From a phage: 64,000 nucleotides of DNA. The position numbers and the translations under genes are program-made. Below, piece by piece: positions 25,383 to 25,614 of the stretch. The stretch lies in assembly GCA_018296565.1 (NCBI GenBank), contig GCA_018296565.1_3935.1; one strand, written 5' to 3'. Under the pieces are notes generated by a model. The model was not told the origin of the DNA, made no database searches, and worked only from the letters and a program-made list of their open reading frames with translations. Numbering within the stretch: position 1 is the first letter of the stretch; each line of letters opens with the position of its first letter.

Positions 25383-25411
25383 TTGACATTGAGATGTGAC
25401 CACTTTATAGT
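25383..25411 (+). promoter_or_regulatory. sigma70-like promoter inside tRNA array
   Basis: TTGACA, 17 nt, TATAGT. Confidence 0.55.
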
Positions 25412-25614
25412 AACCTTAGTTTTCGTTGCGTAGCGTCTATTTTGCAAATTTAAAATAAATGCAAACGACAATGTTTTTCTGGCAGTAGCTTGATAGGCTA
25501 AACACCAGTGAGGTCTTCCAATCCCTCATCAAAGAATTTGGCGTACTCGCCCACGGTATGATTAATAAGGTGGGCATCTTTAAGGGCTTTCTAACAGAGT
25601 CTTTAAAGATTAAT

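Follow-up and report, generated by a model that had tools for sequence, protein, structure and literature searches.

The locus and its promoter

What does a promoter drive when it lies inside the tRNA array of a phage, in a gap with no evident protein-coding gene? The window, by which we mean the whole 64,000-nt stretch of DNA analyzed here, belongs to a Felix O1-like phage (Felixounavirus); its positions 25200-25800 were 99.8% identical to Enterobacteria phage KhF1 and matched 281 phage records. The window carries a 27-gene tRNA array on the + strand, and the element under study occupies the 247-nt gap of that array between the genes for tRNA-Ile and tRNA-Arg(TCT). An earlier note on this DNA had described a promoter in the gap, followed by a short hairpin and a run of T, and had proposed a 50-70 nt transcript acting as a small RNA or an attenuator. 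The landmarks of the gap are given below.

25292-25367, + strand: tRNA-Ile, the upstream neighbour
25383-25411, + strand: sigma-70-type promoter, with TTGACA at 25383-25388, a spacer of 17 nt and TATAGT at 25406-25411
25576-25610, + strand: 15-bp hairpin between the conserved core and tRNA-Arg(TCT), in the predicted fold
25615-25691, + strand: tRNA-Arg(TCT), the downstream neighbour, called by ARAGORN and Rfam

The near-consensus promoter was present as described and was the top match (11/12) when we scanned the 9 kb between 22 and 31 kb. Its score alone was not above chance: the window held 4 sites of at least 11/12, counting both strands, as compared to 3.5 +/- 1.8 in shuffled sequences. The same promoter fronted the same RNA in other Felixounaviruses with differing upstream tRNAs, and homologues in unrelated phages had TTGACA-17-TAGATT or TTGACA-17-TAATCT at the equivalent place. 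We consider the promoter credible because it is conserved across relatives and not because of its bare score. The conserved block begins at AGUUUUCG, 7 nt past the -10 element. In relatives of the UAB_Phi87 type (L023, L054, L091, L113), an insertion of ~90 nt separates the -10 element (+3 nt) from AGTTTTCG and thereby shows where the conserved RNA begins on its 5' side.

The conserved promoter thus supports a non-coding RNA gene inside the tRNA array that would be transcribed from near 25418, as the earlier note had supposed. The next tRNA, which that note placed about 200 nt away, begins 197 nt past the likely transcription start, while its distance from the end of the feature as first delimited is 135 nt. 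A terminator scan found none between the core and tRNA-Arg(TCT), and the 3' end of the RNA would probably be set by RNase P cutting at the 5' end of this tRNA. The 15-bp hairpin that precedes the tRNA was variable among relatives, some of which had a different stem-closed module there. We infer an RNA gene of ~160-200 bases on the + strand, from about 25418 to 25576 and reaching up to 25614 before processing.

Distribution of the element

In a sensitive BLAST search with the array gap, 25452-25576 matched intergenic stretches of unrelated phages at 71-87% identity, none of them annotated, and 596 phage records matched in all. The carriers included Ackermannviridae, the N4-like phages Pollock and St11Ph5, Serratia phages and 46-48 kb siphophages of E. 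coli, Klebsiella and Aeromonas. Among 5426 complete E. coli genomes, 329 (about 6%) also had the element, and it was never annotated there. In P22-like prophages these copies occupied the leader of the late operon, with the Q antiterminator on one side and the holin on the other; further copies adjoined tRNAs in ~110-kb phage-plasmids. When a tag-agnostic pattern was run over 596 Gb of genome contigs, almost all matches were chance matches, the real ones being prophages of Pseudocitrobacter and Rouxiella.

We noted that in prophages and siphophages (L001, L005, L014, L089, L108, L124 and many others) the core was flanked by repeated modules made of CACAACAGGTAAGAGCATTG, a variable cargo of 40-100 nt and CAGTGCTCTTTCCGTTGTGGTG (for example L124:2870-3320), with a GGTTCGANTCC T arm often included in the cargo. 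The modules look like stem-closed tRNA-like units in long unannotated RNA arrays; an Rfam search of the module arrays found nothing. Some Felixounaviruses had one module of this type directly after the core. In Salmonella phage P46FS4 of the Ackermannviridae (L002:1380-3330), ~2 kb without an annotated gene surrounded the core and held many stem-closed tRNA-like units; in its relatives L064, L081 and L099 one such unit was ~130 nt long and ran from GCCGTTA... to ...AAACGGCTCCA.

The array of the window had further features of its own. A 471-aa ORF adjoining it upstream (22455-23870) matched DUF2828 and DUF7788 and gave no match in a PDB sequence search; a role as an RNA-binding partner for the array RNAs is conceivable. 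Within the array, a 134-aa ORF (25925-26329) is probably a homing endonuclease, its match to HNH endonucleases being weak (17 bits, under the cut-off). At 24907-24960, an orphan T arm and 3' acceptor strand (GCGAAGGTTCGATTCCTTC ACTCGGC A) were followed 3 nt later by the matching 5' acceptor strand and D arm (GTCGAGT TG GTGTAATGGTAGCAC). Since the 3' half of a tRNA here precedes the 5' half, this is either a permuted or a tandem-truncated tRNA, and it was called by neither ARAGORN nor Rfam. A perfect 19-bp inverted repeat, AATTATCTTTGTAGATAAG at 24987-25005 and CTTATCTACAAAGATAATT at 25111-25129, encloses about 105 nt of unassigned sequence just 5' of tRNA-Lys and may be another structured RNA of the array.

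A tmRNA-like message with a constant tag frame

The conserved part of the gap had the layout of the message region of a tmRNA, with the following features.

25455-25460, + strand: linker ATAAAT before the resume codon, with U at -5 (25456) and A at -4 (25457)
25461-25496, + strand: tag frame GCA AAC GAC AAT GTT TTT CTG GCA GTA GCT, encoding ANDNVFLAVA, then TGA TAG
25479-25508, + strand: H5-like hairpin in the predicted fold, with outer stem CTGG (25479-25482)/CCAG (25505-25508) and inner stem 25486-25491/25495-25500
25509-25541, + strand: pseudoknot A, with S1 TGAGG (25509-25513)/CCTCA (25524-25528) and S2 CCAA (25518-25521)/TTGG (25538-25541)
25542-25575, + strand: pseudoknot B, with S1 CGTACT (25542-25547)/GGTATG (25555-25560), S2 GCCCAC (25549-25554)/GTGGGC (25570-25575) and the loop TGATTAATAA

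The first GCA of the frame corresponds to a resume codon, and the U(-5) and A(-4) of the linker before it (AUAAAU, then GCA) have their counterparts in U85 and A86 of E. coli tmRNA. It is mainly A86, the nucleotide at -4, that sets the reading frame in tmRNA, and a role of U85 has also been described (PMC2481249). A(-4) was retained in variants that we found by BLAST, including one that reads UACAAGU before GCA. The tag itself is short, start-less and Ala-rich at its end as in a tmRNA, and its stop lies in the counterpart of helix 5, the two stop codons being in and beside the loop of the H5-like hairpin.

All the homologue copies compared had AUAAAU GCA AAY GAN and a stop 10 codons on. In an alignment of 90 distinct copies (A1), the frame was exactly 10 codons in every copy, with 20 tag variants following the pattern AN[DE]xxx[LRK]x[AV]A. 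A pattern scan of IMG/VR gave at least 120 contigs, and 122 of the 124 matches listed had 10-codon tags. Variants found by BLAST, and not by the pattern, were of the same design (ANDAQFLAVA in Hafnia phage SPARTY and ANEEVYLAVA in a phage-plasmid). On the part of the frame that the search pattern did not fix, third codon positions varied most (entropy 1.39 as compared to 0.9 and 0.8), and the last tag codon was GCN with all four third bases seen. The frame has neither a start codon nor an SD, and a start-less, SD-less frame that is under peptide-like constraint points to trans-translation.

The structure downstream of the message was conserved through base changes. In pseudoknot A, S1 was paired in 99.6% and S2 in 99.4% of cases, with compensatory changes in 7 of 9 pairs (A1), while S1 of pseudoknot B was 99.8% paired with 2 compensatory pairs. 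Taken together, both stems of pseudoknot A and S1 of pseudoknot B comprise 15 pairs, for which 99.6% of 1350 cells were paired and compensatory changes occurred in 9 of the 15 tested pairs; none of 500 shuffles matched this, and slid controls gave 29-50%. S2 of pseudoknot B had at least 12 covarying variants of differing lengths, and the outer stem of the H5-like hairpin had at least 8 (CTGG/CCAG, CTGAT/ATCAG, TGAT/ATCA, TGGC/GCCA, AAAGC/GCTTT and others). The RNA of the window also folded better than its shuffles (z -3.75). Two H-type pseudoknots backed by covariation therefore follow the message; upstream of it, the RNA of the window has a hairpin only, and type I relatives have a possible pseudoknot.

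These comparisons bear on whether the gap might hold a small protein gene. Two ORFs do exist in the window, one of 46 aa on the minus strand (25437-25577) and one ATG frame on the + strand (MQTTMFFWQ). The first was shorter than 20 aa in 67 of the 90 homologues, and the second ranged from 5 to 20 aa among the copies and had no SD; furthermore, the varying length of S2 in pseudoknot B is that of an RNA stem rather than of coding sequence. No frame other than that of the tag, and nothing on the opposite strand, was conserved among the 90 copies. The statement that the region has no ORF was thus correct in substance, as the overlapping ORFs on either strand are not conserved, and a protein product is hardly credible.

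The hairpin and the run of T

The hairpin on which the proposal of a short transcript was based lies across the start of the message.

25424-25473, + strand: self hairpin, in which 25424-25444 pairs with 25451-25473 (-12.9 kcal/mol)

It was present in the minimum-energy fold, with a 3' arm that reads aaatgcaaacgac and not atttgcaaacgac as had been quoted, and the five T that follow it are indeed found at 25474-25478. In this hairpin, the 5' arm pairs with the linker, the resume codon and codons 1-4 of its own RNA. Its inner stem, TATTTTG (25438-25444)/TAAAATA (25451-25457), had counterparts with compensatory changes in other types (CTTTG/CAAAG vs TTATG/CATAA).

The position of the hairpin directly before UUUUU (25474-25478) is what favours a 50-70 nt small RNA or attenuator ending there, and the short form would be just the antisense arm described below. 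The details of the site argue against it. The stem is AU-rich and weak, and a terminator scan made no call on it. The T-run falls within codons 5-6 of the 10-codon tag frame, where GTT TTT encodes Val-Phe; it was missing from most homologues, whose codons 5-7 differ. Neither the G+C-rich stem nor the conserved U-tract of an intrinsic terminator or attenuator was found, and conserved, covarying structure continues for 100 nt further, to 25575. We therefore regard a transcript that ends at the hairpin as improbable, while partial early termination at the T-run may give rise to a species of ~60 nt. The hairpin is better read as a closed state of the RNA, in which the 5' arm lies on its own linker and resume codon. 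The initial observation was in essence right and its interpretation too small, since the feature would appear to be the start, about the 5' third, of a larger, tmRNA-derived RNA.

The RNA lacks a tRNA-like domain

The tRNA-like domain of a tmRNA, i.e. a 7-bp acceptor stem with G3:U70, a T arm and a 3' CCA, was absent from the RNA, and ARAGORN found no tmRNA in the window. At permissive thresholds, Rfam gave only weak tmRNA-related matches. The tmRNA model (RF00023) scored 14.9 bits against a cut-off of 47, with the match limited to model positions 56-294, and aligned AUAAAUGCAAACGACAA to the resume region. Lacking a tRNA-like domain, the RNA is not a tmRNA and could not, alone, be charged or enter the ribosome. 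In phage swi2 (L001), ARAGORN did report a tmRNA; it used a tRNA-Met as the acceptor and gave a nonsense tag, and was rejected.

The missing domain and the score far under the Rfam cut-off would suit a decaying, functionless fragment of a captured tmRNA gene. The element was found in at least six unrelated phage groups as well as in prophages, with compensatory changes, an intact frame and promoters of its own, which makes decay very improbable.

We also considered whether the RNA could be the coding piece of a split tmRNA encoded by the phage, with a phage tRNA-like RNA supplying the acceptor and T arm. The element was always located among tRNAs or tRNA-like modules, and phage St11Ph5 encodes a tRNA-Ala(cgc) at 150 nt upstream of its copy (L248:175-246). 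In addition, some Felixounavirus relatives had a D-armless tRNA-like gene directly downstream, whose G3:U70, A73 and encoded CCA are the identity marks of alanine. This gene (in L022, L027, L054, L076 and L113) replaces tRNA-Arg(TCT) and has the same TCT anticodon loop; ARAGORN made no call on it. The Rfam model of permuted, two-piece tmRNAs (RF04321) gave 29.5 bits in the window, again under a cut-off of 47. However, that match borrows the T arm of a complete tRNA-Ile, and the promoter falls between its two 'pieces'. The neighbours in the window are ordinary tRNA-Ile and tRNA-Arg, no partner was common to all contexts and the flanking modules vary, and the window had no phage sequence complementary to the arm elsewhere. 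A split phage tmRNA thus seems quite unlikely to us; some relatives may encode an acceptor partner of this kind, but the window offers no support for one.

The 5' arm is complementary to host tmRNA

The RNA begins with a segment upstream of the message that is complementary to the tmRNA of the host.

25418-25446, + strand: 5' antisense arm, with the seed AGTTTTCGT at 25418-25426

The seed is the exact reverse complement of nt 97-105 of E. coli ssrA, ACGAAAACU, which encode codons 3-6 of the tag ANDENYALAA; the host sequence was confirmed in all 5426 E. coli genomes. Nucleotides 79-105 of host tmRNA form its single-stranded message region. Within the arm, AGUUUUCGU is the sole invariant block upstream of the message, and 25433-25435 and 25437-25445 were predicted to pair with host nt 76-91. 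In the predicted fold of the free RNA 25418-25423 was single-stranded, so the arm combines a conserved, accessible region with complementarity to the host that exceeds chance.

We assessed the pairing with leader-only duplexes and their shuffles, counts of exact runs and cofolding; duplexes between the full core and the full tmRNA had been tried and were replaced, as they gave a meaningless full-length duplex. The first 29 nt of the RNA in the window formed a duplex with host nt 76-106 of -26.0 kcal/mol (z -2.7), and none of 150 dinucleotide shuffles was as low. The commoner leader type formed duplexes of 43-49 nt with host nt 54-106, for which the energies were -39.5 to -47.2 kcal/mol (z -4.6 to -6.2). 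The extended duplex of the window's own leader type is thus only moderately strong, and some divergent leaders were poor beyond the seed (z -0.2 for the L010 type and -1.6 for L042). The best duplex ended at host nt 105/106 in 9 of the 10 leader types tested; the tenth, from Ackermannviridae, covered the same site and extended to nt 139. Pairing of at least 9 contiguous nt by the seed was seen in 48 of 54 leader types, as compared to 7 of 1080 shuffles, and the seed and a second block occurred in the right order in 20 of 54 leaders and in no shuffle (0/1080). When position was ignored and the full core was compared with the full tmRNA, an exact complement of 9 nt arose in 13% of shuffles; the complementarity is significant because of its position, its conservation and the extended duplex.

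We also compared the fit of the arm to the host message and to that of the phage. The arm fitted the host better than its own message in all 14 leader types listed with their alignments (scores of 22-35 vs 11-24; for the leader in the window, 30 vs 24), and across the 54 leader types the gap was sometimes small. Around the resume codon, the GCGAC block of the arm fits the GUC-GC of the host but not the AAU-GC found there in the phage RNA, and the phage tags depart from the host tag exactly at codons 4-6. Type I RNAs contain an internal GAAAC as a possible alternative partner of the seed; in the window, we found no second sequence complementary to it. The predicted net gain on complex formation was -4.9 to -17.9 kcal/mol for the RNA of the window, being only -4.9 kcal/mol with the full-length host fold, and -20 to -30 kcal/mol for type I.

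Against tmRNAs with the tag ANDETYALAA, the seed has one mismatch and is unadapted, and binding was predicted at the same site and slightly weaker. No covariation between arm and host tmRNA was seen; the one divergent arm that we traced is that of phage Mangalitsa (L062), which infects E. coli. That arm had hinted at a host tag '...DSENY', a candidate that we dropped as no such tmRNA was found. Taken together, the complementarity suggests that the 5' arm targets host tmRNA as an antisense RNA.

A possible exchange of the tag template

The RNA appears to be chimeric, an antisense RNA joined to the message module of a tmRNA, and both halves could act together. In the free RNA, the arm would be folded back on the linker and resume codon of the same molecule, with AGUUUU left single-stranded to serve as a toehold. 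This toehold would pair with codons 3-6 of the host tag template, from where the duplex would zip from host codon 6 to the base of pseudoknot 1 or, in type I relatives, through its 3' half. Such a duplex would bury the host resume codon and A86, and would free the linker of the phage RNA (8-14 nt) together with its resume codon, in the place occupied by the host's own, 12 nt from pseudoknot 1 (PMC2481249). Host tmRNA-SmpB would then provide the alanyl-tRNA-like domain, the ribosome would resume on the phage template, and rescued proteins would carry the phage tag rather than ANDENYALAA, perhaps to the benefit of the phage. For this, the ribosome would have to load a template that is joined to tmRNA through a side duplex only. 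It has been shown that tmRNA stays largely active when its pseudoknots are exchanged or its tag template is changed, and that it tolerates changes in linker length (PMC2481249).

The main rival is a plain inhibitor or decoy of tmRNA, whose arm would block the host resume codon or provoke cleavage of the tmRNA. The tmRNA-like body would then serve for stability, localisation (S1, ribosome) or as a decoy, and the tag frame would never be translated. The same complementarity data support it, it needs no unusual ribosome step, and the duplex covers host A86 and the resume codon, the masking of which, on a structural argument, inactivates tmRNA (PMC2481249). An inhibitor leaves unexplained, however, the constant 10-codon frame with its in-frame stop, the third positions that vary most, a last codon of the form GCN and the retention of U(-5)A(-4) in the linker. 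We consider plain inhibition unlikely, if still a serious candidate. We prefer the template swap, in which the RNA docks on host tmRNA, masks its template and has the host machinery append ANDNVFLAVA, because no other reading gives both halves of the RNA a role and also accounts for the constrained, start-less frame. We propose it tentatively, as a model with a substantial but less than even chance of being correct.

Relation to known RNAs

The RNA shares with bacterial tmRNA (SsrA; RF00023) an A-rich linker with U(-5)A(-4), the GCA resume codon, a 10-codon tag that begins AND and ends with Ala, stops in an H5-type hairpin and H-type pseudoknots after the message. Unlike tmRNA, it has no acceptor stem, T arm or CCA and cannot be alanylated; it has two pseudoknots after the message where tmRNA has three, and carries an antisense 5' arm in addition. 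The RNA family is unannotated, and we keep it apart from tmRNA as it lacks the defining tRNA-like domain.

Two-piece (permuted) tmRNAs (Rfam RF04321) occur in alpha-proteobacteria, cyanobacteria and some beta-proteobacteria; in them the message is on one RNA chain and the 3' half of the tRNA-like domain on another, the two being held together by base pairing. In the complex proposed here, the message would likewise be on a chain separate from the tRNA-like part. In the two-piece tmRNAs, however, a single gene gives rise to both pieces and the 5' acceptor strand is part of the coding piece, whereas the partner proposed for the phage RNA is the complete tmRNA of another organism, held via its message region.

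Other phage RNAs offer further comparisons. AgvB and AsxR of EHEC prophages are phage anti-sRNAs that sponge Hfq-dependent sRNAs. They too are phage RNAs that base-pair with a host non-coding RNA; the difference is that the target proposed here is tmRNA and that a replacement template is carried as well. Species 1 and 2 RNAs of T4 are stable RNAs of unknown function in a phage tRNA cluster, and the present RNA resembles them as a non-tRNA RNA gene in a phage tRNA array that is probably freed by the tRNA-processing enzymes.

Phages are also known to carry genes derived from ssrA, as this one appears to be. Complete tmRNAs were described in mycobacteriophages Bxz1, Catera and others and in Bacillus phage G, and phage DS6A has an RNA consisting of the tRNA-like domain only, for which the authors proposed interference with host trans-translation (PMC4131195). 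Those genes are either complete or the tRNA-like half only, whereas here we found the message half only, joined to an antisense arm. The 2014 census, which covered 543 RefSeq bacterial viruses of November 2012, listed ssrA in no enterobacterial phage (PMC4131195). We found no earlier description of the RNA family, and none of a natural antisense inhibitor of tmRNA, in the full-text literature searched.

The family is widespread in enterobacterial phages, prophages and phage-plasmids, and hundreds of sequenced phages that infect E. coli, Salmonella, Klebsiella, Erwinia and Aeromonas carry it. Trans-translation is the main bacterial pathway of ribosome rescue and protein tagging; some phages require it for growth, and it is a drug target. 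The RNA family raises the questions of whether a tmRNA template can be supplied in trans, what a changed tag does during infection and what roles the large unannotated RNA regions beside phage tRNAs have. Even on the conservative reading, the RNA would be a natural antisense inhibitor of tmRNA, which is new to the literature searched. If the template swap is true, it would be the first case of a tmRNA reprogrammed in trans and a new viral route to seizing host quality control.
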